Of a stretch of DNA of 64,000 nucleotides, positions 1-23,433 are shown one piece after another. Position 1 is the stretch's first letter. The number at the start of each line of letters is the position of its first letter. The stretch comes from a virus: positions 7,068-71,067 of IMG/VR virus record IMGVR_UViG_3300044568_002742. One strand, written 5' to 3'. The translations under genes and the position numbers were made by a program. The notes below the pieces were generated by a model. It was not told the DNA's origin. It searched no databases and worked only from the letters and a program-made list of their open reading frames with translations.

Positions 1-339
1 ATGAGAGTGCGGCGGAGTGTCCGTTTGCCAGACTGGCAACCCCGATAGAGTACATTATACTCTTTAGTGCGGCGCTTGTCACTATCGCGATTGGGTTGAT
101 GTTTGTAATATGAAGATCCTGGGAAACATTCTACTCATGATAGCAGCTGCTGCCATATCTACGATCACCATTGTGGTGATGGCCCAAGAGTTACTGCGCA
201 CATTGTGATCAATTGGGTGCTGCTATGGTGTATCGAGGCTGTATTAATCTGCGGTTATGTGGGATTGATTATAGCCTGGAAGAAAAAGTTTGACAAGTAG
301 ACCTTGCTAGCTGTATAATACACATAACTTAACTGGGAG

Positions 340-558
340 ATGAATATGAATAAGCTTAAAGAGTGTCCACATTGCAGTGGTGAAGATCATGAATATCTAG
401 AATATGAATTCGATCGTGAGACCAATACTTTGCTGCAGATAGTTGAGTGTTGTGATTGTGGGACCCAATGGAATGAAGTATACAACACTCAATACAGTGG
501 CATCGATGATGTCAATGTACCACTTGGGCCCTTTGATTTAGATGAAGATATTGATTGA
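340..558 (+). CDS. Small zinc-ribbon protein (CPHC...CCDC)
   Basis: Two CxxC pairs; promoter 290-319 and GGAG RBS; similar to 17598-17789. Confidence 0.7.
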   Translation: MNMNKLKECPHCSGEDHEYLEYEFDRETNTLLQIVECCDCGTQWNEVYNTQYSGIDDVNVPLGPFDLDEDID

Positions 559-598
559 CATCCTGGCATTGCTAGCTGTATAATACACGTAACTTAAC

Positions 599-841
599 TT
601 GGAGTACAAAATGAAGATAACAGATAAACGAACTATTTTGGTGAGAAGTGCCGGTGTAAGTTTCCACACTACTGCCGGTGCCATTCGTGAAGGTGTTGGC
701 AATTATAGCAGCTTCAATGCTGCTTGTACATTGGCCCTAGGAGAGATGGAAAATTTCACCGATGAGGGGTCCAGGGATACCAGGGGAGTTATGGGGACCT
801 GGCGGGGTGTTACTCTTCAATTGGACATGCTAGCTGTATGA
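599..841 (+). CDS. Hypothetical protein (likely start 611)
   Basis: Promoter 555-584, GGAG RBS. Confidence 0.65.
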   Translation: MEYKMKITDKRTILVRSAGVSFHTTAGAIREGVGNYSSFNAACTLALGEMENFTDEGSRDTRGVMGTWRGVTLQLDMLAV

Positions 842-1024
842 ATGATAATAATTATAACTTAGAATTATCCCCTGAACGGCATTATAAGTTAATTCAGGTA
901 TTGACCGCGTATACTGATGTATTGAATGTAGGGGAATGTACCGACCAGGATATGGACCAATTAAGAGAAGTATTGATTGATAGTTGGAAAAATAGATTTG
1001 ACATGATGGATTGCTAGCTGTATA

Positions 1025-1354
1025 ATGGGAATGAAGTTATTTGTATATGGGACTTTGAAGAAAGGTTTCCCCAATCATTCTGTATTAGGCAACGCGTTAT
1101 TTGTTGGTTATCATACTACTAAACCAAACTATACGATGTATGATATGGGAGCATATCCAAGTATAACAATGACAGGTAATACCGCGATTATTGGCGAGGT
1201 ATATGAACTAGAAAGTTTAGATTACTGTGATCAATTAGAGGGTTATCCTATGTTTTATGATAGAACCGAGATAGAAACAGAATATGGATTAGCTTGGGTA
1301 TATCATTATTTTCCTAATAGCAAAAAAGTAATTGAAACTGGTATATGGAAATAG
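1025..1354 (+). CDS. Gamma-glutamylcyclotransferase (AIG2/GGACT family)
   Basis: LFVYGTLKKG motif, GEVY, D.LEGYP..Y.R, AWVY. Confidence 0.85.
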   Translation: MGMKLFVYGTLKKGFPNHSVLGNALFVGYHTTKPNYTMYDMGAYPSITMTGNTAIIGEVYELESLDYCDQLEGYPMFYDRTEIETEYGLAWVYHYFPNSKKVIETGIWK

Positions 1355-1413
1355 TTTGACAGCCTGAATTAATATGTTATAATAACCATTCATTAATCAA
1401 CTTGGAGCATGAC

Positions 1414-1761
1414 ATGGCATATATGAATCAAGAACGTAAGAAAGCAATCGCGCCGGCAGTAGCTGCGGTATTGAAGAAGCATGGTGTGAAGGGCAGCTTA
1501 GCGGTCCGGCACCATTCCACCTTAGTGTTGAATTTACGTTCTGGTAAGATTGATTTCGATACTAGCTACGGCCGTAGTGTGAATAATTATTGGTATAAAG
1601 AGCACTATACCGGACCGGCGTTATCCTTCTTGAATGAAGTCATGCCATTATTGAATACTGGTAACCATGACCGATCGGATATTCAATCTGATTACTTTGA
1701 TGTTGGTTGGTATGTTGATATCAATATTGGTCAATGGGATAAACCTTATATCTTGGAATAA
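1414..1761 (+). CDS. Hypothetical phage protein
   Basis: GGAGCA at 1404 fixes the start at 1414; C-terminal DYFDVGWYVDINIG. Confidence 0.75.
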   Translation: MAYMNQERKKAIAPAVAAVLKKHGVKGSLAVRHHSTLVLNLRSGKIDFDTSYGRSVNNYWYKEHYTGPALSFLNEVMPLLNTGNHDRSDIQSDYFDVGWYVDINIGQWDKPYILE

Positions 1762-1819
1762 ACATTTGACAGTACTGGCTAGTAGTGGTATACTATCCAT
1801 TCATTCATCAGGGGGTTTT

Positions 1820-1951
1820 ATGTATATTGTACATTATTGGGCAAAATGTTCTATTGTGGGTGAATATCTCGATCATCAAAAATTTGATGATTATGAGATG
1901 GCGAGGAAGTTTGCTAGGAAGCATGGCGAACGGGTAATGAGAATATTATAA
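1820..1951 (+). CDS. Small hypothetical protein (MYIVHYW...)
   Basis: Promoter at 1766, AGGGGG RBS; 3' part of track ORF 1667-1951. Confidence 0.55.
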   Translation: MYIVHYWAKCSIVGEYLDHQKFDDYEMARKFARKHGERVMRIL

Positions 1952-1986
1952 CTTGACAACTGCCAAGGATGGCGGTATAATGTCAA

Positions 1987-2065
1987 GATGGAAAACACTT
2001 GCTAGGATGGCATGTTGGCAGTCAATGCATATCCAGTAATTTCAAAGGTAGGTTGGTTGTTATTT
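1987..2065 (+). ncRNA. Candidate small RNA, copy A of five-copy family
   Basis: Own promoter 1953-1981; TGC-TAGGATG-GCA hairpin; core TCCAGTAATTTCAAAGGTA 2032-2050. Confidence 0.55.
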
Positions 2066-2147
2066 GACATAAATGCGAAGCAAGTTGGTCTGGCCATATA
2101 TGTCTTCCCTTGGCGGGCTTCACTTCTAATCCTTAGATGATGTGTCT

Positions 2148-2175
2148 ATTATACAGCATAGTTTATTCATGTCAA
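2148..2175 (-). promoter_or_regulatory. Minus-strand sigma70 promoter convergent on ncRNA copy A
   Basis: Reverse complement reads TTGACA-16-TATAAT followed by the same ACACATCATC leader as plus-strand promoters. Confidence 0.7.
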
Positions 2176-2256
2176 TAGGTAGAATAAAATAAAATAAAGT
2201 TGACAAGATGTTTTGATGTGTTATACTATGTACAACTTAAACGAAGTGGAGCAAGA

Positions 2257-2460
2257 ATGATGGAAGATGATAGATTTACACCTTCAGATTATATGTCTAA
2301 TGCGGAGTATATGGCTGAAGCATTATTTCAGTATGCTAGTGTATATGGTGAAGAGCGTCAAGATGAGGAATGGATATCTTCCCCATATGATACTTGGGAG
2401 AAAAACCCGCATTATAGAGGATTGCCAGGACGTCATCCAGAAGAAGATTACGACGAATAA
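2257..2460 (+). CDS. Hypothetical acidic protein
   Basis: GGAGCA RBS, promoter at ~2200. Confidence 0.7.
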   Translation: MMEDDRFTPSDYMSNAEYMAEALFQYASVYGEERQDEEWISSPYDTWEKNPHYRGLPGRHPEEDYDE

Positions 2461-2519
2461 AAGATTGACAACAATGGCTAGTAGGTGATATACTAGCCAT
2501 TCACTCATTGGAGCATATC

Positions 2520-2774
2520 ATGGAATTAAAACAATTCAAACAAGAACTTAAAGCACTAGGTTTTAAGGTATCTATCAAGTCACAATCATATGGTCGTCAT
2601 GCAACATATATTCATAAAGGAATGGATGAAGCATTGACCTTTAATGTATTCACGCCAGAGCGTCTTAAACGATGGACACCATTACGGGAATGGCAAACTG
2701 CTAATCAAGTACGACTTGGGGTATTACGTCAAAGAGAACAAATTCATGGATTATGTAATCTAGTAATCAATTAA
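2520..2774 (+). CDS. Hypothetical protein
   Basis: GGAGCA RBS, promoter 2465. Confidence 0.7.
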   Translation: MELKQFKQELKALGFKVSIKSQSYGRHATYIHKGMDEALTFNVFTPERLKRWTPLREWQTANQVRLGVLRQREQIHGLCNLVIN

Positions 2775-2833
2775 TACTTGACAACTGGTTAGTATTACCC
2801 TATACTAGCCAGAACATTCATTAGGAGCAGAAT

Positions 2834-3211
2834 ATGAGAGATTACACTACCTTATTGGAAACCACACGTGACCAGTTTGACATCGTTGTAGATAAGGCAT
2901 ACGAGGATGGTATTCATCCAAGAGATTGTTTTGATGATAGCATTGATCCAGAAACCAATAAGCCATACTTTGACATTGATCAGATGTGTAGAGATATTGA
3001 TGATGGTGACTTGGATTGGTTTTTCTTACGCACACGAGTATTCTATAAAGGTGTAGAACTTGCCGAAGAATTCTTAGGTGGATGCATGTATAAAGATGCC
3101 ATTGATGTATTGACAGATGGTACAGCGGAGGATCAAATTGAGCAAGCATTATATTCAGCAAAAAATGAAGCAAAGATATTAAAAGATATGTTTGCTTCTT
3201 TGGAAGTTTAA
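2834..3211 (+). CDS. Hypothetical acidic protein
   Basis: AGGAGCA RBS, own promoter. Confidence 0.75.
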   Translation: MRDYTTLLETTRDQFDIVVDKAYEDGIHPRDCFDDSIDPETNKPYFDIDQMCRDIDDGDLDWFFLRTRVFYKGVELAEEFLGGCMYKDAIDVLTDGTAEDQIEQALYSAKNEAKILKDMFASLEV

Positions 3212-3245
3212 TGTTATACTAGCCATTCACTTTTAGGAGCAGAAC

Positions 3246-3434
3246 ATGAATGAGAACGAAGTCCTTAAACAATGTCAAGCATATGCATTAGGTTATCACG
3301 ATGGATTGACCTATGGCAATGAAGAAACCAGAGATACCATTGATGATCCTTACCGTCATTATTATAAGATTGGTTATGAACGTGGCGTGAGTGATTATTG
3401 TGACGAAGCACATCCCGAAGATACTTTCAACTAG
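3246..3434 (+). CDS. Hypothetical protein
   Basis: AGGAGCA RBS. Confidence 0.65.
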   Translation: MNENEVLKQCQAYALGYHDGLTYGNEETRDTIDDPYRHYYKIGYERGVSDYCDEAHPEDTFN

Positions 3435-3445
3435 GAGAAGACATT

Positions 3446-3961
3446 ATGCCAAATTGGTGCCAGAACTATGTAACCTTAACACATGAAGACCCAGCGATGA
3501 TTGAAAAAGCATTGGGGGCATTCAGGAAAGGTGATTTCTTCAAAGAACTTGTTCCCAGACCAGAAGAGGAAGAAGAGAATTGGTATTCTTGGAACATTGA
3601 TAATTGGGGTACCAAATGGGATGTTGGTGATGAAGATGGTGTAGGCGATGATATGGATGAGAATATGTTATCATTACATTTTGATAGTGCGTGGTCGCCA
3701 CCTATTGCCGGATATGAGAAGTTAGAAGAACTAGGTTTTACAGTTGAGGGTTATTACTGTGAGGAAGGAATTGGATTTTGCGGATTGTATGCTTGTGGTC
3801 TTGATGATTGCTATGATATAGAGGGCGATTCCAAATGGGTAGTTGAGAACATCCCAAAAGAGATCGACGAGATGTTTGCAATATCTGAGAATATGGATAT
3901 GTGGGAACAAGATCAAGCCGAAGAAGAACTTAGAAATAAATCAACTAACGAAGAACAATAA
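3446..3961 (+). CDS. DUF1281/YubB(Api92)-like protein
   Basis: MPNWCxN, WY.W...NWGTKWD, FDSAWSPP, E.G.GFCG motifs. Confidence 0.7.
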   Translation: MPNWCQNYVTLTHEDPAMIEKALGAFRKGDFFKELVPRPEEEEENWYSWNIDNWGTKWDVGDEDGVGDDMDENMLSLHFDSAWSPPIAGYEKLEELGFTVEGYYCEEGIGFCGLYACGLDDCYDIEGDSKWVVENIPKEIDEMFAISENMDMWEQDQAEEELRNKSTNEEQ

Positions 3962-4018
3962 GTTGACAAGTGGCTAGTATTACCCTATACTAGCCAGAAC
4001 ATTCACTTGGAGCATATC

Positions 4019-4279
4019 ATGAAAAACTTAAACACCTATATTGTACAACAAAACTTTTGGAGAGGTTATGCCAACTTACCATTGTTTGATATCAAGAACT
4101 TATCCGCCAGTGATGTAACTGAACTGGCTGATGCATTAAGTAGCAACTTATCACCAGAGAACTTACATTGTGATGGTGAGATCACCATTACCGAAGCACG
4201 CGCCAAGTATGCGTATTACCTTAAGGTAATCCGTGAATTGGAAAAAGTAGGACATCACTTCACTATTACTGATCTTTAA
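4019..4279 (+). CDS. Hypothetical phage protein
   Basis: GGAGCA RBS; LSPENLHCDGE motif. Confidence 0.7.
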   Translation: MKNLNTYIVQQNFWRGYANLPLFDIKNLSASDVTELADALSSNLSPENLHCDGEITITEARAKYAYYLKVIRELEKVGHHFTITDL

Positions 4280-4337
4280 TACTTGACAGATCTGGCTGGT
4301 ATGTTATACTAGCCAGAACATTCATTAGGAGCAGAAC

Positions 4338-4622
4338 ATGTACAAGAAAGAAATGTTAAAGTTATTAAAGGCTAATGTTGGCAAGGGTGTAAGTTTCTAC
4401 CTTGGTAGCACTTATATGTCCCCGTATAAGGACAACTGGTATATCCTACCATTCACCAATGATGATTTACTCAGGGTAGTTTCACTTGACAGCGATAAAA
4501 AAGCATGGGTTACTGATCCAGATACCGTTATTACTGATACGACATTCAAGCCAAAAAACATAATGACATTCTCTATTACTCATTTTAGAATTGATCAATT
4601 AGTTGGTGTAACTATTTTTTAA
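4338..4622 (+). CDS. Hypothetical protein
   Basis: AGGAGCA RBS, own promoter. Confidence 0.7.
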   Translation: MYKKEMLKLLKANVGKGVSFYLGSTYMSPYKDNWYILPFTNDDLLRVVSLDSDKKAWVTDPDTVITDTTFKPKNIMTFSITHFRIDQLVGVTIF

Positions 4623-4649
4623 TAACTAGCCAATTGGGGGCATCACATC

Positions 4650-4904
4650 ATGGCATTATGTAAAGTAGCAAAAGAACATTACAATCTCTTACAAGCAATG
4701 AAGTATCAATGGGAGAATCCGCCAGCGGGTTTTAATTCCCAATATGATGCCGTCAAGGCAGAGAAGCATAAACGAGTTGAGAAGTTAGTCAAGGCTGGTT
4801 TAGATGCTTATCATTCAACCTTGAAGCGAGTTGGTATGGACGAGTATTATGATTTGATGGATGCTCGTGAAAAAGAGTTGCGATTACTATATAGTGGGGT
4901 ATAA
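4650..4904 (+). CDS. Hypothetical protein
   Basis: GGGGGCA RBS; ORF track. Confidence 0.65.
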   Translation: MALCKVAKEHYNLLQAMKYQWENPPAGFNSQYDAVKAEKHKRVEKLVKAGLDAYHSTLKRVGMDEYYDLMDAREKELRLLYSGV

Positions 4905-4905
4905 T

Positions 4906-5067
4906 ATGTTAAAACGATATATGGTAGTGTTAGAATTACGGGTAGAGGATGAAGAAGCCATTGACTTTACTTGGTTGGAGGAAGTCATTGGTGAACATCT
5001 TACTGAGGGTGGTGGTGAACACGTTAAGGTATCATGGCACAAGCCATATATCGAAGAAATATGTTGA
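4906..5067 (+). CDS. Small hypothetical protein
   Basis: Starts just after the upstream stop; acidic composition like its neighbours. Confidence 0.55.
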   Translation: MLKRYMVVLELRVEDEEAIDFTWLEEVIGEHLTEGGGEHVKVSWHKPYIEEIC

Positions 5068-5122
5068 CATCATCTTTTAATCTGTTATAATAATCACAAC
5101 TTAAACGTAATTGGAGATCAAC

Positions 5123-5500
5123 ATGGGATATAGAAGCGAAGTAGCAATCAAGGTATATGGTAAGGAAGAAAACATGGTAGGCTTTAAGAAAGCCTATGAT
5201 GAGGCACTTGCCCAACTACCCGAGGTGGAACAAGGTTACATTGATGATTTGATGCGTGATAATGAGAGAAACGGGTTTGATGATAATGTTTTTACCTTTC
5301 ATGCCGATTATATAAAGTGGTATGTAGGCTATGACTATGTTGGTGTAAATTTCTTCATGGGCTTATTAGAACTTGTTGATGACTTGGGAGTTAATTCTGA
5401 GTTCGTGCGAATTGGTGAGGAGTATGATGACGTTGAAACAGACTATCGAGGTGATTGTGAATATATTCTTGGTGTAACTAGAATGATAGATGGAATTTAA
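5123..5500 (+). CDS. Hypothetical phage protein
   Basis: GGAG RBS; MGYRSEV...FVRIGEE.DD.E motif. Confidence 0.7.
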   Translation: MGYRSEVAIKVYGKEENMVGFKKAYDEALAQLPEVEQGYIDDLMRDNERNGFDDNVFTFHADYIKWYVGYDYVGVNFFMGLLELVDDLGVNSEFVRIGEEYDDVETDYRGDCEYILGVTRMIDGI

Positions 5501-5518
5501 ATATTATTAAGGAATGAC

Positions 5519-6286
5519 ATGCTATTTATTTTTAAAAAGAAGACAATCGTATTAGATTGTATAACATCAAACTTGGGTATATTTAACTATTACCCGATAG
5601 TTAAATCTAGCACAAATTTGCCTACTTGGTGGAAGAATTTACCTGAAAGTTTTGTATGTGGTAGAACACCAGAATTTGACAAATTAGATAGACATTCATC
5701 AACGATGAAAAAGTGTTCAGGGTTTATTGATTTGCATAAAAACAGTATTGTCATTCCATCAAATTGTGATGTAAAGATACAAACAACCGAGAGTGGAATA
5801 TTTGGATATCAATTTTCAGATTCAAGTGGAATGGAAAACTTTTCTATTGATTCGCATTCCCGTGAAGAATTTGGTAGTGAACTTGATCATCTTATACATT
5901 TAAAGATAATATCCCCGTGGTTATTATTTGAAAAAACAGGTATTAACTTTCATGTATGTATGCCATTTTGGCATCATATTAAAACATTAGATAAAGTCTT
6001 TATACCGCCCGGCATAGTCAATTATAAATATCAGCACACATCACATATCAATATGTTTGTGCCAAGAGCCGATGACCTAATTGAATTCACTGCTGGAACA
6101 CCGTTATTACACCTCATACCATTGACGGAACGTAAGGTAGAAGTCAAGAACCATATAGTTGATGATGCTGAGTTTTTAAAATTACACAAACATGCTGGAT
6201 TACGATCAAGATTTTTAAACTCATATATGTTACAAAAGAAAATTTTAAAAGCAAGCAATAAATGTCCTTTTAATTTTAAAAATTGA
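5519..6286 (+). CDS. Hypothetical phage protein (TMKKCxGF, GTPL, C-terminal CPF)
   Basis: 255-aa ORF; lacks the GGAGCA RBS and is more K/F/I-rich than its neighbours. Confidence 0.7.
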   Translation: MLFIFKKKTIVLDCITSNLGIFNYYPIVKSSTNLPTWWKNLPESFVCGRTPEFDKLDRHSSTMKKCSGFIDLHKNSIVIPSNCDVKIQTTESGIFGYQFSDSSGMENFSIDSHSREEFGSELDHLIHLKIISPWLLFEKTGINFHVCMPFWHHIKTLDKVFIPPGIVNYKYQHTSHINMFVPRADDLIEFTAGTPLLHLIPLTERKVEVKNHIVDDAEFLKLHKHAGLRSRFLNSYMLQKKILKASNKCPFNFKN

Positions 6287-6341
6287 TTGACAAGTGGTTG
6301 GTATTACCGTATACTAGCCATTCACTTTTAGGAGCAATGAT

Positions 6342-6539
6342 ATGACAAGTTACAATCACGGGTTTGATGTATGTTTCGATATAGAAACAAGCAAAGAAGT
6401 AGAACGGATTACCAATCGAGAATTAATAATAGCATTGGAATCCAGAATACGAAGATTACGAGCTGAGTTTATTGATGCCGATACCTTAGATAGTCCAGCG
6501 AGTGATTGCTTTGGTTATATGGATTCATATGAGGTATAA
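6342..6539 (+). CDS. Hypothetical protein
   Basis: AGGAGCA RBS, own promoter. Confidence 0.65.
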   Translation: MTSYNHGFDVCFDIETSKEVERITNRELIIALESRIRRLRAEFIDADTLDSPASDCFGYMDSYEV

Positions 6540-6686
6540 TGATGGCAACTTATAAGATTACCCAAATGGTTGAAGAATTGTATTATATCGAGGCTGATTC
6601 AGAAGATGATGCCCTTGAAATATTATACGCTGGTGTTGATGAACCTACTCAATATGGTTCAATGAATATAACTGATATAACTTTAT

Positions 6687-6965
6687 GTGGAGCAGATGAT
6701 GAATGATATAGAATTAGTTAAAAGAATGGCACAAGACGCTAGTGTAATTATATATGATGGGATTGGCTATCAGGTATGTAATTGTGATTTTGATGATAGC
6801 AATTTACTTGACGATGATGAAGAAATGGGCATGACTGTATTAGATGAAGAAACCCAAGATAGTATGTTCATCGCCTATAGTGAAGTTGATTTAGAACGTG
6901 ATATGTTTTATAAGTTAGTAGTGATGGACGAGAATGAGTATAAAGTAGTTGACACAGTAGAATAA
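6687..6965 (+). CDS. Hypothetical acidic protein (likely start 6696/6699)
   Basis: GGAGCA RBS. Confidence 0.65.
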   Translation: MEQMMNDIELVKRMAQDASVIIYDGIGYQVCNCDFDDSNLLDDDEEMGMTVLDEETQDSMFIAYSEVDLERDMFYKLVVMDENEYKVVDTVE

Positions 6966-7004
6966 TCCCAGTATAATAACCTGTAACTTAACTAGGAGCA
7001 GACA

Positions 7005-7307
7005 ATGAATGAACCAATAGGTGCAAATGTCAAAATCAAATGGTTGGATGAAACATTCCATCCAGAACATGAAGTTGAAACATATTGGGTACACTTCTCA
7101 TTCAGTGAAGAACCAGACTTCTCTGAATGTACTGGGGAGGAAGTAGACCAACATGGAGTTCATGACTGGGATATATTCTATTATGTCGCTAATGAGAAAG
7201 AATTAGAAGACCTGATGAATGATGATCCGTATGATGGTTATGTGATATTGGATTACAAATTAGTTTATAGCATTGAAGAAATGTTAATTAATAAAAGAAA
7301 TTCTTGA
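7005..7307 (+). CDS. Hypothetical acidic protein
   Basis: AGGAGCA RBS, own promoter. Confidence 0.7.
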   Translation: MNEPIGANVKIKWLDETFHPEHEVETYWVHFSFSEEPDFSECTGEEVDQHGVHDWDIFYYVANEKELEDLMNDDPYDGYVILDYKLVYSIEEMLINKRNS

Positions 7308-7358
7308 CAAATGTGTCTGGTATGTTATACTAGACACAACATCAACTAGGAGCAGAAC

Positions 7359-7589
7359 ATGAATACCGATATAGCAGATTTTGTAGATGTCCTTGCCAGT
7401 AATCTAGATTATAATGGCTCATTATCATTAGCCGAGCGGGATATGGCAGTAACCAAGTTATTACAACATTGGGCGAAACAGATTGATTATGATGACTTAT
7501 TAGATTATTATATATCTGGTCAAGAAAATTACTTGACAGAGCTACCAGATAGTGAGATAATAGAAACCGTAAAGGAAGAACTCCTTTAA
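7359..7589 (+). CDS. Hypothetical protein
   Basis: GGAGCA RBS, own promoter. Confidence 0.7.
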   Translation: MNTDIADFVDVLASNLDYNGSLSLAERDMAVTKLLQHWAKQIDYDDLLDYYISGQENYLTELPDSEIIETVKEELL

Positions 7590-7735
7590 CCGATTATTAC
7601 TGTAAGGGACGATGCCTAAGAGGATGACCGTATATTTTGGGGTGGGTCAGCATCAATGAACCCCATTAGGGCAAGTCGCATTTTTGAATGGACACACTAT
7701 ATTTTTTTGGGTGTAGCCTTGCCAATATTAAGATT

Positions 7736-7772
7736 AGGATATAATAGAAACTACTATTATATCCTTTTTTTT
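7736..7772 (+). terminator. Intrinsic terminator
   Basis: AGGATATAATAG-6nt-CTATTATATCCT followed by a T run. Confidence 0.8.
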
Positions 7773-7843
7773 GTTTAAAATAAAGTTTGACAAACCTATT
7801 CAATATGTTATACTAATCACAACTTAAACGAGGAGCAAATCAA

Positions 7844-8137
7844 ATGAATGAATTAACTTATACTATCATCAATGGTCAATGGGACAAAATTCAAATGTCA
7901 AGTGGTCGTGGATCGGTACTGACTACCTATGATAAACTGGTAGAATTATTTGGCGAACCTGAAATAACCAATTGCGGTAAGACTCAGGTAGAATGGGATA
8001 TTGAATGGAGTGATGGCACAATATCGACTATCTATGATTGGAAATGCTATGGTGAAGAACCAGAAGAAATAACCGAATGGAACATTGGTGGCTTTGATGG
8101 CAACTCATTATACTATGTTGAAGAACTGCTAAAATAA
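7844..8137 (+). CDS. Hypothetical phage protein
   Basis: AGGAGCA RBS; L...FGEP, K..VEW, TIYDWK, W.IGG motifs. Confidence 0.75.
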   Translation: MNELTYTIINGQWDKIQMSSGRGSVLTTYDKLVELFGEPEITNCGKTQVEWDIEWSDGTISTIYDWKCYGEEPEEITEWNIGGFDGNSLYYVEELLK

Positions 8138-8196
8138 ATTTGACAAATGTGTCTGGTATGTTATACTAGACTGACTTTAACAAAGGAGCAAATAAA

Positions 8197-8496
8197 ATGG
8201 CAATAGATTACCGAGTAACAGTATTCATCCCAGACGAAGTTCTACACCATTATTGGGAAGATGGATTAAAGACTGGATTGGAAATGCTATCATTTGAAGG
8301 CGACATAGAAGATGTTTATTGTGGTAACTGGGTAGTTGAGTTTGATGCGTACAATAAAGCCGTCAATGCGGAAATCGAACTGGAAGCATTAGTTGAACGA
8401 TATACGTTATCATATAAACGATTGACTTCCGCGAAGGAAATGACCATTGCGGAGATTGAAGAAAAGTTAGGACATCCAATCAAGATAGTAAAATAA
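8197..8496 (+). CDS. Hypothetical protein
   Basis: AGGAGCA RBS; C-terminal EMTIAEIEEKLGHPIKIVK. Confidence 0.7.
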   Translation: MAIDYRVTVFIPDEVLHHYWEDGLKTGLEMLSFEGDIEDVYCGNWVVEFDAYNKAVNAEIELEALVERYTLSYKRLTSAKEMTIAEIEEKLGHPIKIVK

Positions 8497-8555
8497 ATTT
8501 GACAAGTGGTTATTATTCCATTATAATAACCACAACATCAACCGAGGAGCAAATC

Positions 8556-8708
8556 ATGGAATTAACATATAGTACAACATTGTACTTTGAAGTACCAGAA
8601 GAATATACCCCAGATGAATATATAAGATTCTTGGAAAAATTCCCAAGAATGGATATGGTTAGTTTTGCAACTGATGTCGGTGATGGTGGATGGGGAGTAG
8701 AAGAATGA
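8556..8708 (+). CDS. Small hypothetical protein
   Basis: GAGGAGCA RBS, promoter 8499. Confidence 0.6.
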   Translation: MELTYSTTLYFEVPEEYTPDEYIRFLEKFPRMDMVSFATDVGDGGWGVEE

Positions 8709-8754
8709 ATACAATAGATTTAAAATTATCATTATCAACAAAGGAGCAAAGATC

Positions 8755-8949
8755 ATGAGTTGTTTTTTCGGTATCACTAAGGCGAAGAAAGAAGCATTCA
8801 TTAAAGCATATATGAACACAACCGCGCGGGTAAGTGAAGAAGAATTGCGGGAGTTCTTTTATGACCACAATACAGTAGCAGAAGCAGATCATATTATGGA
8901 CTGTTGGTTGCTATGGTGTGATGGATTTGAACATAACGGGGTGGTATAA
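8755..8949 (+). CDS. Hypothetical protein
   Basis: AGGAGCA RBS. Confidence 0.65.
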   Translation: MSCFFGITKAKKEAFIKAYMNTTARVSEEELREFFYDHNTVAEADHIMDCWLLWCDGFEHNGVV

Positions 8950-9499
8950 TGAAAAAGATTAATTTAGAGATGAGTTTAGAACAGTTCTTATCATTAAAGG
9001 CATTGCTCTTATATGTATTGGATAACGAGCAGGACAGTTATGATGAGTATGTAGAGGAATGTGGTGATATGGGTAACCATATCTACTCATATGCCTTATC
9101 GGTAGCAGAAGCCCTTAAATAAAATTGGAGTACAACATGATTGACTTAACCAAGCTGGAACATCTAGTAGAAGAAATCACCGATATGTCAGCCGACCAAC
9201 TTTGGGATTTGGCTAAGTTGTTAAACCGAGCCAGTCCTGTTAATGCCAATATATTAAAAGCAGACCTTGACTTTGTTGAATCAATGTAATATAATAATCA
9301 CACATTAACACATTGGAGCAAGCAAATGAACATATATGAAATAACATTATCCAATAGATTGAATGAAGATGAGTTTGTTCTTTCAATCGGTACTGCGGTA
9401 GATGAGGAAACAGCAATCAAAGAATGCTTAGAAACATTTACCTTTCATGATATCGAATCTATCAATATCATTCCAGAAGAATTCTACTAGGAGCAAGAC

Positions 9500-11379: not shown

Positions 11380-11632
11380 CTGGGAGCAGATCATGAACAT
11401 AGAAGCAAAACGACTAGCAGTAATTGAGGATGCCTTTGATACTTGTTTGAATGATAGCCATTATTTGATGTTCATCTTAAAAGATCACTATGGTAATTTA
11501 TCAGATGAAGATGTTGAAAAATATTATGAAGATGCGTTTGGTGATAAGCCAGATTGCTTGTAGGAAATAAAACTTGACAATGTGGTTATTACTCGATATA
11601 ATAACCACAACATAAATTAACTGGAGCAGAGA

Positions 11633-12421
11633 ATGAATTTACTAGAAAGTGATGAACAAATTATGGAACGTCTTAGAGAACGATTTGAAATTCTCGAGGA
11701 TATGACCAAAGCATGTAAGGCAGGCAAGGTACGGGCATTATTAGTTAGTGGTGCGCCTGGGGTAGGTAAGAGTTTCGGTGTAGAGAAAGTTCTAAGTGGA
11801 CATGATGTATTCGCCACTATAGCACAAGACAAATCACTTAAGAAATATGAAGTAGTTAAAGGTGCCATTACCGCACTGGGATTGTATGCCAAGTTATATG
11901 AATATAAAGGTGATAAGAACATATTGGTATTTGATGATTGTGATAACTTGTTCTATGATGAATTATCATTGAACTTATTGAAAGCGGCATTGGATACAAG
12001 CGAGAAGCGTACATTAAATTGGAATGCAGAAAGTTATAAATTGAGAGATGAAGGCATTCCTAGTTCATTTGAATTCAAAGGCGGAGTGGTATTCATCACC
12101 AATGTAGATTTTGAACATATCCGTAGTAAGAAATTGCGCGACCATTTAGCCGCATTATCTTCACGATGTCATTACTTGGATTTGACAATTCATAGTGAAC
12201 GTGATAAGATTTTACGAATTAAACAGATCGTCGCTGATGGGATGTTAAATAAACATCAAATAACAGAAGAAGATAAAATTGATGTAGTGAACTTCATTAC
12301 AGAAAATAAACAACACCTGAGAGAGTTGTCATTACGTACAGTTATAAAATGTGCTGACTTGTGTGCTAGTTTCCCAGATAAATGGAAACGTGTCGCAGAA
12401 ATGACATTAATGAAAAAGTAA
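11633..12421 (+). CDS. P-loop AAA-type ATPase
   Basis: Walker A GAPGVGKS, Walker B ILVFDDCD, sensor FITN, arginine finger ALSSR. Confidence 0.85.
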   Translation: MNLLESDEQIMERLRERFEILEDMTKACKAGKVRALLVSGAPGVGKSFGVEKVLSGHDVFATIAQDKSLKKYEVVKGAITALGLYAKLYEYKGDKNILVFDDCDNLFYDELSLNLLKAALDTSEKRTLNWNAESYKLRDEGIPSSFEFKGGVVFITNVDFEHIRSKKLRDHLAALSSRCHYLDLTIHSERDKILRIKQIVADGMLNKHQITEEDKIDVVNFITENKQHLRELSLRTVIKCADLCASFPDKWKRVAEMTLMKK

Positions 12422-12433
12422 AACCCCCCCCCA

Positions 12434-12609
12434 GAGGCGCAAGCCTCAATAATAGATAAGTGAGTAGGATTGCTCCCTGAAAACTTATCCAATAAAGTAT
12501 TGAATAGGAAGGATTGCTCCCCTGATAATTCATTACTCCTGAGGACATTGTCCTCATTAACAAGCCCTAATATCGACGGTTGCTCCCCTAGATATCAGGG
12601 CTTTTTTTT
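12434..12609 (+). ncRNA. Structured 3'-UTR/small RNA with three TTGCTCC (anti-GGAGCAA) loops, ending in an intrinsic terminator
   Basis: Five consecutive hairpins; TTGCTCC at 12470, 12514, 12580; AAGCCCT/AGGGCTT stem followed by T8. Confidence 0.65.
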
Positions 12610-13354: not shown

Positions 13355-13440
13355 CAATGCTAGCTGTATCATAGGCGTATAATGCTTGACATGCTGGGTA
13401 GTATCATGTATACTACCCAGAACAAATGAAGGAAAAGACA

Positions 13441-13602: not shown

Positions 13603-13755
13603 CGGACATTATATCAGCACTCATGCGAGGGCTATTGCCCCGATGAATGAAATAAAACATGAAACAGATGTAATGATATACACGATCATAATTGCAATCT
13701 TTATATCAATCATAATCAGCTGTGTGAATGATATCAGTAATTCAATAGAAAAGCT

Positions 13756-14301
13756 ATGGAAAAATTAGAAAGAGATACCCCCGAGCTATTAATCACCATA
13801 GATAATTTTTTATCCAAGAGTGATAACAAAATAATAACTGATGCCTTTTTAGCACAGAGTGGATTAAGGTGGACTGATAATGATATCAATAATGTCAATA
13901 AAGAAAAAGATTTGGTTACATCTAAAATTTTAAATGAAGTTAATAAGCATTTTAGTTTAGAGAACATGGTAGGATATGAAGGCTGGGCTAGATGGAATAA
14001 TAGTATTCCGGATTGGCATTATGATGTAGATGAACATGTGTGGTTTCATGACAAAATAATGAAAACACCTATATGTAGTATTGTCTACTATGGTGTGATT
14101 AAAGATTTAGTTGGTGGTGAATTCGTTTCAGAAACACATAGCATAAAACCTAAAGAAAATATGTTATTGATATTTGCACCAAAAATATACCATAAGGTAA
14201 ATCAATATACTGGTGAACGTATGGGTATTGCCATTAACCCATGGGCATTCAAACCCGCTGATTACGTTATACAACCCAGCAGAACCAGAGCTATTTTTTA
14301 A
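13756..14301 (+). CDS. 2OG-Fe(II) oxygenase
   Basis: WHYD (HxD), GGEF, LIF...YHKV, R.GIAIN. Confidence 0.75.
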   Translation: MEKLERDTPELLITIDNFLSKSDNKIITDAFLAQSGLRWTDNDINNVNKEKDLVTSKILNEVNKHFSLENMVGYEGWARWNNSIPDWHYDVDEHVWFHDKIMKTPICSIVYYGVIKDLVGGEFVSETHSIKPKENMLLIFAPKIYHKVNQYTGERMGIAINPWAFKPADYVIQPSRTRAIF

Positions 14302-15601: not shown

Positions 15602-15641
15602 AAGGTATTGACAAGGGCAAGGATGCCCTGTATAATTACAT

Positions 15642-15723
15642 CATCAAATCACAGGGAAGCAATGGCAGGAAGCCATGTCGGCAGTCGATGCGTATCCAGT
15701 AGTTTCAAAGGTAGGTCGTCTTT
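15642..15723 (+). ncRNA. Candidate small RNA, copy B
   Basis: Promoter 15608-15636; ATGGC-AGGAA-GCCAT hairpin; core 15695-15713; no GGAGCA-led ORF. Confidence 0.6.
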
Positions 15724-15803
15724 AAAAAATAATAAAAAATAAAGTTGACAAGTAGTAATTACCTGTTATAATAATCACAACATCAACACCAACGGAGCAA
15801 ATC

Positions 15804-16560: not shown

Positions 16561-16600
16561 AATAAACTTGACAATGCACATGGACGTGTTATACTAGACA

Positions 16601-16682
16601 CATCAAATCAGGAAAGACATGCTAGGATGGCATGACGTCGTAACAACGAGAGTCCAGCAATTTCAAAGGTAGCTTGTCTTTT
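16601..16682 (+). ncRNA. Candidate small RNA, copy C
   Basis: Promoter 16568-16595; CATGC-TAGGATG-GCATG hairpin; core 16653-16671; ends AAAGACA/TGTCTTT can pair. Confidence 0.6.
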
Positions 16683-16984
16683 AAAAAATAAAAAAAATAA
16701 AGTTGACAAAGTATTTAATTCAAGTATAATAACATCATACCAACTAGGAGCAAATCATGAAAAAGAAATTCTTTGTACATTATACCGATCTTATGTGTGA
16801 TCAAGCATGCATTGCTGAAGTTTATGCGTATGATATCGAAGACGTAATGGAAGACTTCGACTACTCAGCTATACAGGTTGATTATATTAATACCGAAGCC
16901 GAGGAACAAGAAGAAAAATAAAATTGACAAGTGGTTATTATTCCATTATAATAATCACAACATCAACACTTTGGAGCAAATCGT

Positions 16985-18834: not shown

Positions 18835-18875
18835 AAATAAATTTGACATAGCACAGGGACGTGCTATAATGTCAT

Positions 18876-18954
18876 CAAATCACAGGAAAGCAATGGCAGG
18901 AGGCCATGTCGGTAGTTAATACGTATCCAGTAGTTTCAAAGGTAACTCGTCTTT
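18876..18954 (+). ncRNA. Candidate small RNA, copy D
   Basis: Promoter 18843-18870; ATGGC-AGGAG-GCCAT hairpin; core 18926-18944. Confidence 0.6.
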
Positions 18955-19038
18955 AAAAAAATATAAAAAATAAATGTTGACAAGTAGTAATTACCTGTTA
19001 TAATAATCACAACATCTCAAAACGACTGGAGCAAGTCA

Positions 19039-19698: not shown

Positions 19699-19731
19699 TT
19701 GACATAGCACAGGGACGTGCTATAATGTCAT

Positions 19732-19810
19732 CAAATCACAGGGAAGCAATGGCAGGAGGCCATGTCGGTAGTTAATACGTATCCAGTAGTTTCAAAGGTA
19801 ACTCGTCTTT
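19732..19810 (+). ncRNA. Candidate small RNA, copy E (near-identical to D)
   Basis: Promoter 19699-19726; core 19782-19800. Confidence 0.6.
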
Positions 19811-20069
19811 AAAAAAATATAAAAAAATAAATGAAAATAAATTTGACAAATGGTAATTACCTGTTATAATAATCACAACATCAACAAAGGAGCAAACCAA
19901 ATGATTGAAGATACATTAGCTTTTGCGGAATACGAAGCCTATCTGGAATTTCAAGCCGAATTTAACGAGCCTTGGCCAGACTTAGCCGAGGAAATATTTT
20001 TCATCTAAGGGATTGACACAGCACATGGACGTGCTATAATGGTACATCATCAACAAAGGAGCAAACATC

Positions 20070-21170: not shown

Positions 21171-21237
21171 AAAGAATTTGACATATGGTTATTATTCCAT
21201 TATAATAATCATAACATCAACACATTGGAGCAAACGC

Positions 21238-21498
21238 ATGACACCAAGCAAATTAAAATGGGAAGTTCAAAACACCAACACGGATAAGTATTTTTTCACC
21301 AGAGATACCATGAAGTTCTTTGGCGATACCATGTCCAATTATGGCGTTAGAGCCAAACCAGTAATGGTCAATGGTCAGACCTGCTGGGAGCTTTATCGCA
21401 GACGAGCAGTAAAGAATAACATAATCGATTCAGCGTTTTTTGATGTTATTACATTCAAACGAGTAATTCCAAACGTCAGTATAGTGGAATGCTCATAA
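21238..21498 (+). CDS. Hypothetical protein
   Basis: GGAGCA RBS; FF.R.TMKFFG motif. Confidence 0.7.
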   Translation: MTPSKLKWEVQNTNTDKYFFTRDTMKFFGDTMSNYGVRAKPVMVNGQTCWELYRRRAVKNNIIDSAFFDVITFKRVIPNVSIVECS

Positions 21499-21561
21499 TA
21501 ATACTTGACAATGCACATGGACGTGCTATAATGACTCATCATCAACAAAGGAGCAAACACC

Positions 21562-21765
21562 ATGGCATCATTAATTACCGTTTCCAAAAAACCCAACTTC
21601 CAATCACAGCACCCGAACTCACCAAAGATGCTATCAGCAATTTGCCTTCAAATATGCGGTGGTGGTCTGACCACTACACAAACCGCACAAGCAATGGAAT
21701 TACAATCCAAAATACTGGCAAACGGCAAAGCAACCAAGAACAAATATACCATCACACTAGCGTAA
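21562..21765 (+). CDS. Hypothetical protein
   Basis: AGGAGCA RBS. Confidence 0.65.
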   Translation: MASLITVSKKPNFQSQHPNSPKMLSAICLQICGGGLTTTQTAQAMELQSKILANGKATKNKYTITLA

Positions 21766-21826
21766 ATGCTTGACAATGCACATGGACGTGCTATAATGGT
21801 ACATCATCAACAAAGGAGCAAACCAC

Positions 21827-22198
21827 ATGATTAAAATAATTAATGACAATGGCAGACCTTGGGCAATCGAAATAGCAGATGATCTAGTGTCATTCTATGA
21901 TGCCCGTTATGAGCATACAGACCTAGGCCAGTTTGTTTCAAAGTATTATATCAAGACAATTCTAGAAGGCAATAGCGGTTTATGTCTAGATGGTGGCGTT
22001 CCTGATTGGTCAATCTCACAAGCAGGTATGCAGAGAATTCGAGCTTGGATTAAAGCACAACAAGCAACAGAATACTTTACCGTGTGGGCGGGAGGGACTG
22101 AAGTCAATGACTTTAACCTGACTGAAGAGCAAGCACACATTATCGCAGAACAATTCAAAGTTCTGGGTTATGACGATATTATAATCGAACGAGTATAA
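21827..22198 (+). CDS. Hypothetical protein
   Basis: AGGAGCA RBS; V.FYD.R...GQFVS.Y...GL.L.GGV..W motif. Confidence 0.75.
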   Translation: MIKIINDNGRPWAIEIADDLVSFYDARYEHTDLGQFVSKYYIKTILEGNSGLCLDGGVPDWSISQAGMQRIRAWIKAQQATEYFTVWAGGTEVNDFNLTEEQAHIIAEQFKVLGYDDIIIERV

Positions 22199-22510
22199 TG
22201 CTAGCTGTAAATATATCACTTGACAGCCACACCCGCGTTTGATACACTATGCACTCACTAACACACATATGGAGCAACACACATGACTAAGAAACACTTT
22301 ATCGAAATGGCTAAAATCATCAAAATGAATCAAGACCTGATTGCCCGTAAACAAACCGCTGATGATTTTGCCAAGATGGCTATACAGGCCAATCCACGTT
22401 TCAACAAAGAAACATTCTTTAAGGCTTGCGGAATTTAAAAAACCACTGTATAATATCACTCAATGGTTAAGGGATCGGCTCTTAACCATAACCACTTTTG
22501 AGGATCTGAT

Positions 22511-22741
22511 ATGAACGAAGTTATTACCCGACCTTCCTTCCAAACCATCGAACAAGCTTGGGAATGGCTTGGAGAAATGGATTTGGAATACTCAGATAAT
22601 TGCCGATTTGCATTTACCGACGATCATACCGCTGTGGGTAAGTACGAAGATCAACAAAACCACGGCTGTTGTGGCTCATTCGATGCCATCATTGAAGTCG
22701 ATGGCAGAAGAGCATATATCGGCTGTAATTACGGTCACTAG
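22511..22741 (+). CDS. Hypothetical protein
   Basis: GAGGA RBS; GCCGSFD, IGCNYGH. Confidence 0.65.
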   Translation: MNEVITRPSFQTIEQAWEWLGEMDLEYSDNCRFAFTDDHTAVGKYEDQQNHGCCGSFDAIIEVDGRRAYIGCNYGH

Positions 22742-22793
22742 CAGGACACCAGCAGGACACCAGCAGGACACCAGCAGGACACCAGCACCAGCA
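22740..22793 (+). repeat. Tandem 11-bp repeat (AGCAGGACACC)x4 plus partial copies
   Basis: Read directly; intergenic. Confidence 0.9.
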
Positions 22794-22890
22794 AAAATTT
22801 ATTTTCATTAGGGTATTGCTTTATTGATTCAACGTGGTATAATTATTTCACGGTTTGGGATTGTCCCAAACCACTACGGGAGCAAACCAA

Positions 22891-23433
22891 ATGATTACTG
22901 TTAATACTATTAAGGCACTATTGGCTAACTTAACTGGCACTACATTCGCTAACATCGATTACACCACTGTAGTGCCTACCAGTGCTGGCAATAAGCATAT
23001 CACTATCACTAAGCACACTAACGCTAATGTACAGTTATTCAATGGCATAAAAGATTATGCTAACGTGTACTTGAAAGCAGTACAAAGAACGGCTAACAAG
23101 CTGGATAACAATCCAGAGAACGTAGAAAACTTCATCGTGTCGCCTACTTGGTTTAATCATAGTGATGATTGCTTCAGCCTAGTTAATCATAATAAAACTG
23201 GTGATGCTTATCTGTTTGCCATCTATAATAACGCTAAATCAGAATACTTCATTGATGGCGTTAAGGCATCAAAACAAGCCGTAGCGACCTATTTAACTCC
23301 TAGTGCCAGCAAGGCATTACTTGGTGACGGAACGGTCTATAACGCTACCAATGACGTTACCCATAACGTTACCGTCCGCACCATAGCATTGGCTAACATC
23401 AATACCATCAAGGCGATGGGCGCGACCATCTAG
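22891..23433 (+). CDS. Hypothetical protein, last gene of the early block
   Basis: GGGAGCA RBS; 5' leader hairpin GGTTTGGGA/TCCCAAACC. Confidence 0.75.
   Translation: MITVNTIKALLANLTGTTFANIDYTTVVPTSAGNKHITITKHTNANVQLFNGIKDYANVYLKAVQRTANKLDNNPENVENFIVSPTWFNHSDDCFSLVNHNKTGDAYLFAIYNNAKSEYFIDGVKASKQAVATYLTPSASKALLGDGTVYNATNDVTHNVTVRTIALANINTIKAMGATI

Follow-up and report, generated by a model that had tools for sequence, protein, structure and literature searches.

The DNA analysed here, a 64,000-nt stretch referred to below as the window, comes from an uncultured lake giant phage in which, judged from the sequence, about 44 early genes share a private tag at their ribosome-binding sites. Its gene blocks and the genes needed for the argument are as follows.

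290..23433, plus strand: early region of small genes, almost all preceded by a separate consensus sigma70 promoter, a short leader rich in A and C, and the Shine-Dalgarno (SD) tag GGAGCA(A)
11574..11602, plus strand: perfect TTGACA-N17-TATAAT promoter of the ATPase gene (consensus match)
11633..12421, plus strand: AAA-type ATPase gene (phrog_1250), tagged with GGAGCA at 11623-11628
24162..63365, minus strand: middle and late genes without the tag (0/37 tagged)
35959-36927, minus strand: primase, untagged
44846-45925, minus strand: UvsX, untagged, AGGAGA site
58373-58996, minus strand: tail tube, untagged, AGGAGT site
59006-62263, minus strand: sheath, untagged, AGGAGA site

The window has 71 copies of the hexamer GGAGCA; shuffled sequences have 18.8 ± 4.3, and none of 100 shuffles reached 71. 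Between positions 1148 and 22884 there are 47 plus-strand matches, and 44 of them lie upstream of an ATG that opens an ORF of 20 aa or more, at a distance of 8-16 nt from the start of the motif; these 44 tagged starts bear out the proposal of the initial annotation that about 40 early genes share this ribosome-binding site. The plus strand of positions 1-24500 holds 51 sigma70-consensus promoters, and in 37 of them GGAGCA lies 15-23 nt past the -10 hexamer. A sigma70-type promoter was found for 33 of the 40 tagged ORFs of the window versus 4 of the 31 untagged ones, and in a group of related loci (clade 1) a sigma70-type promoter was found for 276/391 tagged versus 44/722 untagged ORFs. The tagged early leaders of the window nearly lack G outside the tag, are unstructured (mean fold energy -1.7 kcal/mol) and sort into near-identical classes that look duplicated.

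None of the 37 minus-strand genes has GGAGCA in the 40 nt before its start. The earlier statement that late genes avoid this site, with AGGAGA at UvsX and the sheath and AGGAGT at the tail tube, thus holds, but the claim that they are either leaderless or of the AGGAGA/AGGAGT type is overstated, because only 6/37 are leaderless candidates and most of the others have short AGGA[AT]-type sites.

The complement of the tag is concentrated in the 3'UTR of the ATPase gene, whose elements are listed below.

12422..12609, plus strand: putative anti-SD RNA, the 3'UTR of the ATPase gene (sequence motifs, fold z = -4.92)
12434..12447, plus strand: GAGGC-GCAA-GCCUC hairpin (sequence and predicted fold)
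12455..12489, plus strand: hairpin 1, loop motif UUGCUCCC at 12470-12477 (motif search and predicted fold)
12496..12537, plus strand: hairpin 2, loop motif UUGCUCCC at 12514-12521 (motif search and predicted fold)
12541..12555, plus strand: plain hairpin GAGGAC-AUU-GUCCUC without the motif (predicted fold)
12562..12609, plus strand: terminator hairpin, loop UUGCUCCC at 12580-12587, then T8 (motif search and predicted fold; relatives share the design)

The element thus comprises a C9 run, a GNRA hairpin, three UUGCUCCC hairpins, one plain hairpin and a T8 run. TTGCTCCC is found at 12470, 12514 and 12580, with spacings of 44 and 66 bp (7 copies in the whole window versus 1.09 expected), and these three are the only minus-strand copies of GGAGCA within positions 1-23000. 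The exact complement had been noted three times at 12434-12609, and we found all three copies in hairpin loops. The predicted fold of 12422-12612 has an energy of -57 kcal/mol (z = -4.92), which was equalled by none of 200 shuffles; in the minimum-energy structure parts of the motifs lie in inner helices of 2-4 bp and the loops are 7, 8 and 6 nt in size. The promoter scan listed no promoter-like site on the plus strand of 12210-12620, and the probable source of the transcript is the ATPase promoter at 11574..11602 (plus strand). A search of RNA runs for this stretch gave no match. There is a stoichiometry concern in that one RNA offers three sites and 44 messages are made from consensus promoters. 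A search of Rfam, which includes a C4 family, gave no match for the window RNA (E ≤ 5), c4 homology in sequence or structure included, and none for the RNAs of five relatives (E ≤ 0.1); no Rfam family or published description of such an RNA was found.

We compared 120 distinct related jumbo-phage loci. At least two loop copies, taken as retention of the RNA family, are present in 97 of them, and the RNA sits 3' of the ATPase gene in every RNA-bearing relative. There is one RNA locus per genome of about 350 kb, next to which the tagged genes are grouped. Across the family the loop motif is UUGCUCCC, AUUCGCUCC or GCCCUC, and the tag changes with the loop. The 60 loci with loop CGCUCC (1,133 ORFs) have GGAGCG at 288 ORFs, GGAGCA at 74 and GAGGGC at 2; the 37 loci with loop GCCCUC (761 ORFs) have GAGGGC at 188, GGAGCG at 3 and GGAGCA at 18; and in the same locus comparison the window, with loop UGCUCC and 71 ORFs, has GGAGCA at 38 and neither GGAGCG nor GAGGGC. 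Position 6 of the tag is loose, as seen in the 74 GGAGCA sites of the CGCUCC clade and in two loci (L075 and L078) that mix GGAGCA, GGAGCG and GGAGCU. In a nested clade of 16 loci without the RNA, any of the three tags is found in 0 of 243 ORFs, and in four sister loci in 9 of 69. A tree of the ATPase, the single protein used for it, places the GCCCUC clade (100/100) within a CGCUCC grade and the no-RNA clade (100/97) within the GCCCUC clade (99/91); the outgroup branch of this tree is very long, and that of the window is long as well. Loop and tag have shifted together in two lineages and been lost together in a third, which strongly supports the anti-SD RNA half of the initial annotation; on these sequences, the association counts as only about three independent evolutionary events.

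The stems of the RNA vary while the loops are fixed: among the 129 hairpin modules of 64 distinct elements there are 107 different 5' arms, and the mean contiguous helix is 9.05 bp versus 5.76 bp with permuted 3' flanks, a value reached in 0/200 permutations. It could be supposed that the tag and its inverted copies are an operator or iteron bound by a DNA-binding protein, the hairpins being incidental, since a double-stranded site reads alike in either orientation and the window has three copies 44 and 66 bp apart. We regard this as extremely improbable, because the loops stay fixed while 107 different stems keep pairing, a run of T6-10 follows the last hairpin in 81/81 loci examined, and the spacing between copies differs widely among relatives.

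The predicted energies are consistent with pairing between loops and tags. Duplexes of the window loops with the start regions of the 44 early genes have means of -12.8 to -13.1 kcal/mol, as against -6.3 to -6.6 kcal/mol with those of the 37 minus-strand genes; a generic 16S tail on the early sites gives -7.45 kcal/mol. In a swap test, start regions of the GCCCUC clade gave -9.78 with their own loop versus -6.00 and -6.68 with foreign loops, and the window loop was not separable by energy from the clade-1 loop (-8.01 versus -8.09). Co-variation and co-loss across relatives argue that tag and loops very probably are a base-pairing pair, which would control early protein synthesis.

A pairing confined to the RNA's own message, in which the 3'UTR folds onto the ATPase tag and the other tags are an inherited promoter-leader cassette, has a precedent in icaR of Staphylococcus aureus, where according to the cited account a UCCC-type motif in the 3'UTR pairs with the SD of the same message, which prevents initiation and yields a substrate for RNase III (PMC3868564). 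The phage 3'UTR likewise has a motif complementary to an SD, but its potential partners are about 44 tagged genes. The tag of the ATPase gene at 11623, the constant position of the RNA 3' of that gene and the near-identical, duplicated-looking leader classes all agree with such action in cis. Descent of a cassette leaves unexplained, however, why the tags switched in step with the loops at dozens of genes per clade and why they were totally lost (0/243) where the RNA was lost, and in relatives distal genes of other classes hold 10-11 nt of complement to the loops. We therefore consider action in cis only to be very unlikely.

The likeliest role of the RNA appears to be the shut-off of early translation, and with moderate confidence we propose that the ATPase 3'UTR RNA pairs with the tagged early SDs, occludes them and silences the early genes as a class. 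Pairing in vivo, repression as its sign and the timing are what we infer from the comparisons above. The 3'UTR would be a conserved phage regulatory RNA with two or three hairpin loops (UUGCUCCC in the window) that pair with a private SD extension (GGAGCAA in the window), and this extension would label the early genes transcribed by the host RNA polymerase. The tail of host 16S rRNA would match the GGAG core only and the phage RNA 7-9 nt, so the latter should out-compete ribosomes at tagged sites. Made from an early promoter, highly structured and terminator-ended, the RNA is expected to be stable and to accumulate, and the delay is assumed to come from this accumulation because the driving promoter is early. 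The accumulating RNA would occlude the tagged sites, perhaps also triggering cleavage of the duplexes, so that early protein synthesis is switched off as a class; middle and late messages, having no tag and in some cases seemingly no leader, would be untouched.

Whether regulation is negative or positive cannot be read from sequence, and the same co-variation also fits a pairing that is positive or protective, shielding the sites from a host or rival nuclease, stabilising early messages or holding them in reserve; the RNA would moreover be made simultaneously with its targets. We think this unlikely: in the cited accounts of LhrC, 6C, icaR and c4 an SD duplex of 7-9 bp blocks 30S binding, and the leaders of the phage are already unstructured, so that no opening by the RNA is needed. 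The co-variation is fitted equally well by the RNA serving as a surrogate anti-SD, docked on S1 or on the small subunit of the ribosome, perhaps via the conserved internal loops adjoining the motif, while its other loops capture tagged messages. This is very unlikely in our view; if true, early genes would have an orthogonal, phage-owned initiation route that the host can neither use nor block.

Repression by such an RNA has parallels in known systems. As described for Alphaproteobacteria, the Cuckoo/CcsR RNAs (RSs0680, alpha-r14) have two to four adjacent hairpins with a conserved loop motif and compensatory stems, as in the phage RNA; these RNAs are encoded on chromosomes, often in several copies, and the only sequence they conserve is a C/U-rich loop motif, which mimics the universal anti-SD (PMC4615179). 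In contrast, the phage RNA is a single phage locus behind an ATPase gene, and its loop is complementary to a private tag, which co-evolves with one temporal class of genes. The Cuckoo/CcsR loop nonamer is not present in the phage RNA, whose loops are those given above, and no Cuckoo/CcsR match was obtained with Rfam in the window or five relatives, Rfam 15 being a release that may or may not include this family. LhrC of Listeria (PMC4132741) and 6C of Mycobacterium (PMC6486639), like the phage RNA, present several redundant C/U-rich sites, some in loops, to the AG-rich start regions of many messages, and they block translation independently of a chaperone or without needing one. As far as these reports go, both are encoded by the host and act at ordinary SDs of scattered stress or virulence genes, with neither a private tag nor a temporal class. 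In phages P1 and P7 the loops of the c4 antisense RNA are reported to pair around the ribosome-binding site and to block translation, with a specificity that differs between related phages (PMC12197685). The phage loops are likewise complementary, by sequence, to the ribosome-site region of their targets; c4 as described there has the single target ant and acts in temperate-phage immunity, as against dozens of lytic-phage early genes here.

The remaining part of the initial annotation proposed that host CsrA/RsmA, which if left free would repress early sites with GGA, is titrated by GGA hairpins and five small RNAs before the anti-SD RNA silences the regulon. The five paralogous units are the following.

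1953..2075, plus strand: ncRNA copy A, promoter and ~80-nt unit with GGA hairpin (promoter scan, paralogy)
15608..15725, plus strand: ncRNA copy B, same design (promoter scan, paralogy)
16568..16685, plus strand: ncRNA copy C, same design (promoter scan, paralogy)
18843..18958, plus strand: ncRNA copy D, same design (promoter scan, paralogy)
19699..19814, plus strand: ncRNA copy E, same design (promoter scan, paralogy)

The annotated set, at least 15 early hairpins and five GGA-hairpin small RNAs, is indeed present. The plus strand of 290-23433 has 34 hairpins with GGA in the loop; 100 dinucleotide shuffles gave 15.9 ± 3.4 and at most 26. Of the 34, 15 lie in promoter spacers and 5 in these promoter-driven non-coding units. 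In four of the 15 spacer hairpins the GGA is retained within unrelated stems, and each ncRNA has one GGA hairpin, with compensatory changes at 4/8 predicted stem pairs, and an extra unpaired GGA about 16 nt upstream; known CsrB and RsmX-Y-Z sponges have more GGA motifs than these two per unit. Against titration, 11 of the 15 belong to near-identical copies of a single promoter cassette, and spacer hairpins are transcribed by read-through only. Among 28 relatives with the tag/RNA pair GGA-loop hairpins are not enriched (241 observed versus 213.6 expected), spacer hairpins number 8 in 273 promoters versus 15 in 51 in the window, and the ncRNA core is missing from 287 loci, its 6 IMG/VR matches being unrelated. 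No match to Rfam CsrB/Rsm families was obtained in positions 1-24000 (E ≤ 5), and no CsrA gene was found in the phage record, only about 20% complete, and four relatives (G000-G004), the control being positive in 3/14 genomes. Titration of CsrA/RsmA is thus unsupported, and the sequence of titration and silencing appears unlikely. Two of the four elements were found to co-occur in relatives and two were not; with its anti-SD half supported and its CsrA half not, the circuit is partly supported overall.

A functional comparison for shut-off of early translation is T4 RegB, according to the cited report a protein endoribonuclease aided by S1 that inactivates early messages as a class at GGAG-containing ribosome sites and spares all late and most middle messages (PMC3014915). 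The window resembles this system in having GGAG in 44 early sites and the tag in 0/37 later genes, but recognition would here be by RNA pairing instead of a protein. A RegB gene was found in 0/5 records (G000-G004, G000 being the incomplete record) and not in PA5oct, and the control, the T4-like phage Merlin, gave E 4.8e-69.

If the pairing works as proposed, a large clade of jumbo phages from lakes and the sea would have a self-contained, RNA-based address system for translation, consisting of a private tag on one temporal gene class and one small RNA that reads it. It would be an RNA counterpart of the early shut-off by T4 RegB. With more than 100 natural lock-and-key variants already in hand, it would also show ribosome-binding sites under orthogonal control in nature and supply matched tag/anti-tag pairs for synthetic biology.

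The window covers 64 kb of an IMG/VR virus record 71 kb long, whose completeness CheckV puts at about 20%, and the relatives of the window are contigs of 300-365 kb; it is therefore a piece of an uncultured jumbo myovirus genome. DNA near-identical to it was found in lake and estuary metagenomes from 20 studies, and a near-identity search with 11000-14000 gave no match among cultured phages. Judged by the UvsW helicase and an AAA-type ATPase, the closest phages are Phosso, Atu_ph07 and PA5oct (about 48-53% identity). The genes fall into two parts:

290-23433, plus strand: block of small genes, the early region
From 24 kb on, minus strand: replication and structural genes (DnaB-like helicase, UvsX, SSB, primase, tube, sheath)

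The hexamer GGAGCA, the extended Shine-Dalgarno (SD) site of early genes and hereafter the tag, was found 71 times in the window against 18.8 expected. Forty-seven copies lie on the plus strand of the early block, and 44 stand 8-16 nt upstream of an ATG opening an ORF of at least 20 aa, which bears out the initial annotation's estimate of about 40 early genes sharing this site. A few early genes have GGAGAT, GGAGTA or GGGG-type sites in its place. Of 51 near-consensus sigma70 promoters in the early block, 37 have the tag 15-23 nt past the -10 hexamer, and the early leaders are A/C-rich, unstructured and almost free of G except in the tag.

None of the 37 minus-strand genes carries the tag (0/37); they have short AGGA[AT]- or AGGAG[AT]-type sites. 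ATAAATA ends 4-6 nt upstream of the ATG in four of them (starts 24788, 27884, 28996 and 58289) and a sigma70-type -10 ends 8 nt upstream of the start in two, so that six of the 37 may be leaderless. Late genes had been described as either leaderless or preceded by AGGAGA/AGGAGT, without GGAGCA; the absence of the tag stood, but only six of the 37 genes look leaderless and AGGA[AT] sites are also used. ATAAATA resembles the T4 late promoter; the late region has 14 copies on its coding strand, the early region one on the plus strand.

The predicted anti-SD RNA lies directly behind the ATPase gene:

11633-12421: ATPase gene encoding 262 aa, with a promoter and a tag of its own (GGAGCA at 11623)
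12422-12609, plus strand: predicted anti-SD RNA
12470, 12514 and 12580: complement of the tag, TTGCTCCC

The three complement sites, which confirm the earlier claim of an RNA at 12434-12609 displaying the exact complement three times, are the only minus-strand GGAGCA copies in 23 kb. The 191 nt past the ATPase stop fold with -57 kcal/mol (z = -4.92). The predicted structure comprises a GNRA hairpin, two long hairpins that carry the motif at the apex, a hairpin lacking it, and a terminator hairpin that has the motif in its loop and T8 behind it; in the lowest-energy fold, inner helices of 2-4 bp conceal part of each motif. A run of nine C at 12424-12432, directly after the ATPase stop codon, stands at the 5' edge of the RNA. 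No promoter-like site was listed between 12210 and the next gene's promoter at 12620, so the simplest reading of the RNA is as the 3'UTR of the ATPase mRNA, which also carries the tag. Rfam searches at gathering and permissive thresholds and a tRNA search gave no match on this RNA or on the five small RNAs considered below.

Parts of the window are carried by 24 DNA sequencing runs, and RNA runs among those listed number zero. Contigs from four lake DNA runs differed from 11560-13400 at one position within the RNA (12493 T>C), with the loops unchanged, so this variation was too small for use. Relatives were sought in IMG/VR with the ATPase protein (250 places, 80 kept) and with a divergent ATPase member (191 further places, 80 kept); the downstream gene 12680-13354 had three weak related loci and was left out of the comparison.

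Hairpins ending in a T-run were found behind the ATPase gene at all 80 first-set loci and in the window. Of the 64 distinct versions, 59 carry two hairpins with the motif, three carry three and two carry one. The 129 hairpins have 107 different 5' arms and still pair, which bears the signature of an RNA family whose loops would be read and whose stems would merely hold the loops up. The mean contiguous helix is 9.05 bp, versus 5.76 bp when 3' flanks are reassigned among the modules, and none of 200 permutations reached 9.05. This partner-permutation test was used in place of column-wise consensus folding, which gave 0 pairs for the terminator modules because stem positions are shifted between them.

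The comparative evidence is the decisive part. Tags were counted in 120 distinct loci, at -18 to -4 of the first ATG of ORFs of at least 50 aa.

Tags upstream of ORFs, by loop motif
CGCUCC (clade 1): 60 loci, 1133 ORFs; GGAGCG 288, GGAGCA 74, GAGGGC 2, canonical GGAGG 14
GCCCUC: 37 loci, 761 ORFs; GAGGGC 188, GGAGCG 3, GGAGCA 18
UGCUCC (window): 71 ORFs; GGAGCA 38, GGAGCG 0, GAGGGC 0

Predicted loop motif and local SD consensus thus go together. In a swap test, start regions of the GCCCUC clade gave -9.78 kcal/mol with their own loop (44% at or below -10) versus -6.00 and -6.68 with foreign loops. The window loop and the clade-1 loop were inseparable by duplex energy, as a U-G wobble would predict; position 6 of the tag is loosely matched, GGAGCA standing before 74 of the 1133 clade-1 ORFs and A, G and U being mixed in two loci (L075 and L078). 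A conserved 16S helix, which presumably resembles two of the tags, misfits the third, and that idea was dropped.

A maximum-likelihood ATPase tree was built from 66 rows picked by hand from the loci, with PA5oct added. The window is placed on a long branch within a basal CGCUCC grade, in which a monophyletic GCCCUC clade (100/100) is nested; nested in the latter (99/91) is a monophyletic clade (100/97) where the RNA is missing and the ATPase gene abuts the next gene directly. In 16 distinct loci of this no-RNA clade, any of the three tags precedes 0 of 243 ORFs, versus 9 of 69 in four sister loci. PA5oct, the closest cultured phage by the RNA-adjacent ATPase (48%), has no RNA behind this gene. 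Together, the nesting and the tag counts record two concordant tag/loop switches and one concordant loss, about three independent events in all, and the tree is of a single protein and has long branches. In PA5oct (L164:2662-3816, 385 aa), and apparently in most relatives, the ATPase domain forms the C-terminus of a larger protein.

A sigma70-type promoter within about 90 nt was found for 276 of 391 tagged versus 44 of 722 untagged starts in clade 1, 90 of 190 versus 60 of 563 in clade 3, and 33 of 40 versus 4 of 31 in the window. By these counts, the tag belongs to the host-polymerase class of genes.

In four relatives of 83-100% completeness, each genome has 3-5 copies of the loop 8-mer, two of which lie within the RNA, and 13-19 of GGAGCG-N3-8-ATG, mostly within about 10 kb adjoining the RNA; the 44-gene regulon of the window is therefore unusually large. 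Four near-complete relatives have single genes distant from the early cluster with a loop complement just upstream of the ATG:

L284:364; L285:314, 354; L286:367; L287:300 (-): 10-11 nt complement

Their products are a membrane protein of 194-196 aa, a small holin-like membrane protein of 93 aa and a secreted protein with repeats; these genes may be additional targets that lie beyond the early class. Many clade-1 relatives also have a conserved non-coding block about 60-200 nt past the RNA terminator (L001-L080; e.g. L001:2700-2860) with G-rich runs, a TATA-like stretch, a TTGT...ACAA inverted repeat and a conserved sequence of about 35 nt, for which the candidates are a further RNA, an origin or promoters of another class. 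In some relatives, 3-4 tRNA genes lie clustered a few kb ahead of the ATPase gene (L012:1375-1619, L072:1848-2095, L084:5564-5879, L086:6572-6820); the tRNA search found none in the window.

The window's own two-loop motif matched at least 119 stretches in IMG/VR; three of the 80 loci listed passed a loose filter, none of them relatives, and no second UGCUCC-type genome was found among the matches listed. In bacterial genomes the two-loop pattern gave 76 stretches, of which 14 were inspected and all 76 filtered; these are tandem repeats in other contexts with one exception, a true member of the RNA family (L350:2230-2330, minus strand) with two loops, a terminator and then TTGACA. It lies on a 9.5-kb contig, probably of a phage, binned with an Ignavibacteria MAG; this is at best a faint hint of an Ignavibacteria host, a single contig being too weak for naming one.

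The initial annotation had further proposed that early RNAs titrate host CsrA/RsmA, citing at least 15 ANGGAN hairpins and five small RNAs. The sequence features were recovered: 34 hairpins have GGA in the loop versus 15.9 +/- 3.4 in shuffles, and 15 lie in promoter spacers, 11 as near-identical copies of one cassette and four with unrelated stems around a kept GGA. The five small RNAs are:

Promoters at 1953, 15608, 16568, 18843 and 19699: paralogous ncRNA units of about 80 nt (copies A-E), reading frame not conserved

Each unit has two small hairpins, with both-sided changes in four of eight predicted pairs, and the leaders resemble decayed copies of the early promoter-leader cassette. Copy A is faced by a perfect TTGACA-N16-TATAAT at 2148-2175 (minus strand), the sole 12-of-12 minus-strand promoter in 1-13000.

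The proposed co-occurrence of these elements in relatives failed: in 28 of the 120 distinct loci, picked for length, GGA-loop hairpins numbered 241 versus 213.6 expected and spacer GGA hairpins eight in 273 promoters, and the ncRNA core pattern was found in 0 of 287 loci, its six IMG/VR matches being unrelated chance hits. Rfam gave no CsrB/Rsm-type match, and no CsrA gene was found in five phage records by a search that detects CsrA in E. coli, B. subtilis and T. maritima. In the window genome the GGA features are genuine, but they do not accompany the tag/RNA pair in relatives; what was read as a CsrA layer is specific to this lineage, and the ncRNAs are possible CsrA titrators only if the host has CsrA.

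Among known systems, the cuckoo/CcsR sRNAs are closest in architecture, with modular hairpins, compensatory stem changes and, as the sole conserved sequence, an anti-SD-like loop (PMC4615179). The C-rich-loop sRNAs LhrC and 6C, the icaR 3'UTR and phage c4 RNA would be alike in action. T4 RegB, which inactivates early messages via GGAG sites while later classes escape (PMC3014915), is a parallel in logic; a search with a positive control detected no RegB gene in the window record and four relatives. By motif or model the RNA belongs to none of these. Our literature search, which took in parts of a 2025 phage-sRNA review (PMC12197685) and of a huge-phage survey (PMC7162821), found no description of such a tag/RNA system. 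What is new is that an entire temporal class bears a private tag, that tag and loops co-evolve, and that the setting is a phage.

The observations of the initial annotation stand, and its interpretation is borne out in part. On the sequence evidence, the tag and its anti-tag RNA are a real, conserved and co-evolving pair. The proposal that the RNA silences the GGAGCA regulon gains from the co-switch and co-loss of tag and loop in relatives, but the direction of control and its timing, like the stoichiometry, are what we infer. Early translational shut-off would be the best-supported mechanism, and we consider it rather probable that the phage uses the RNA in this way.
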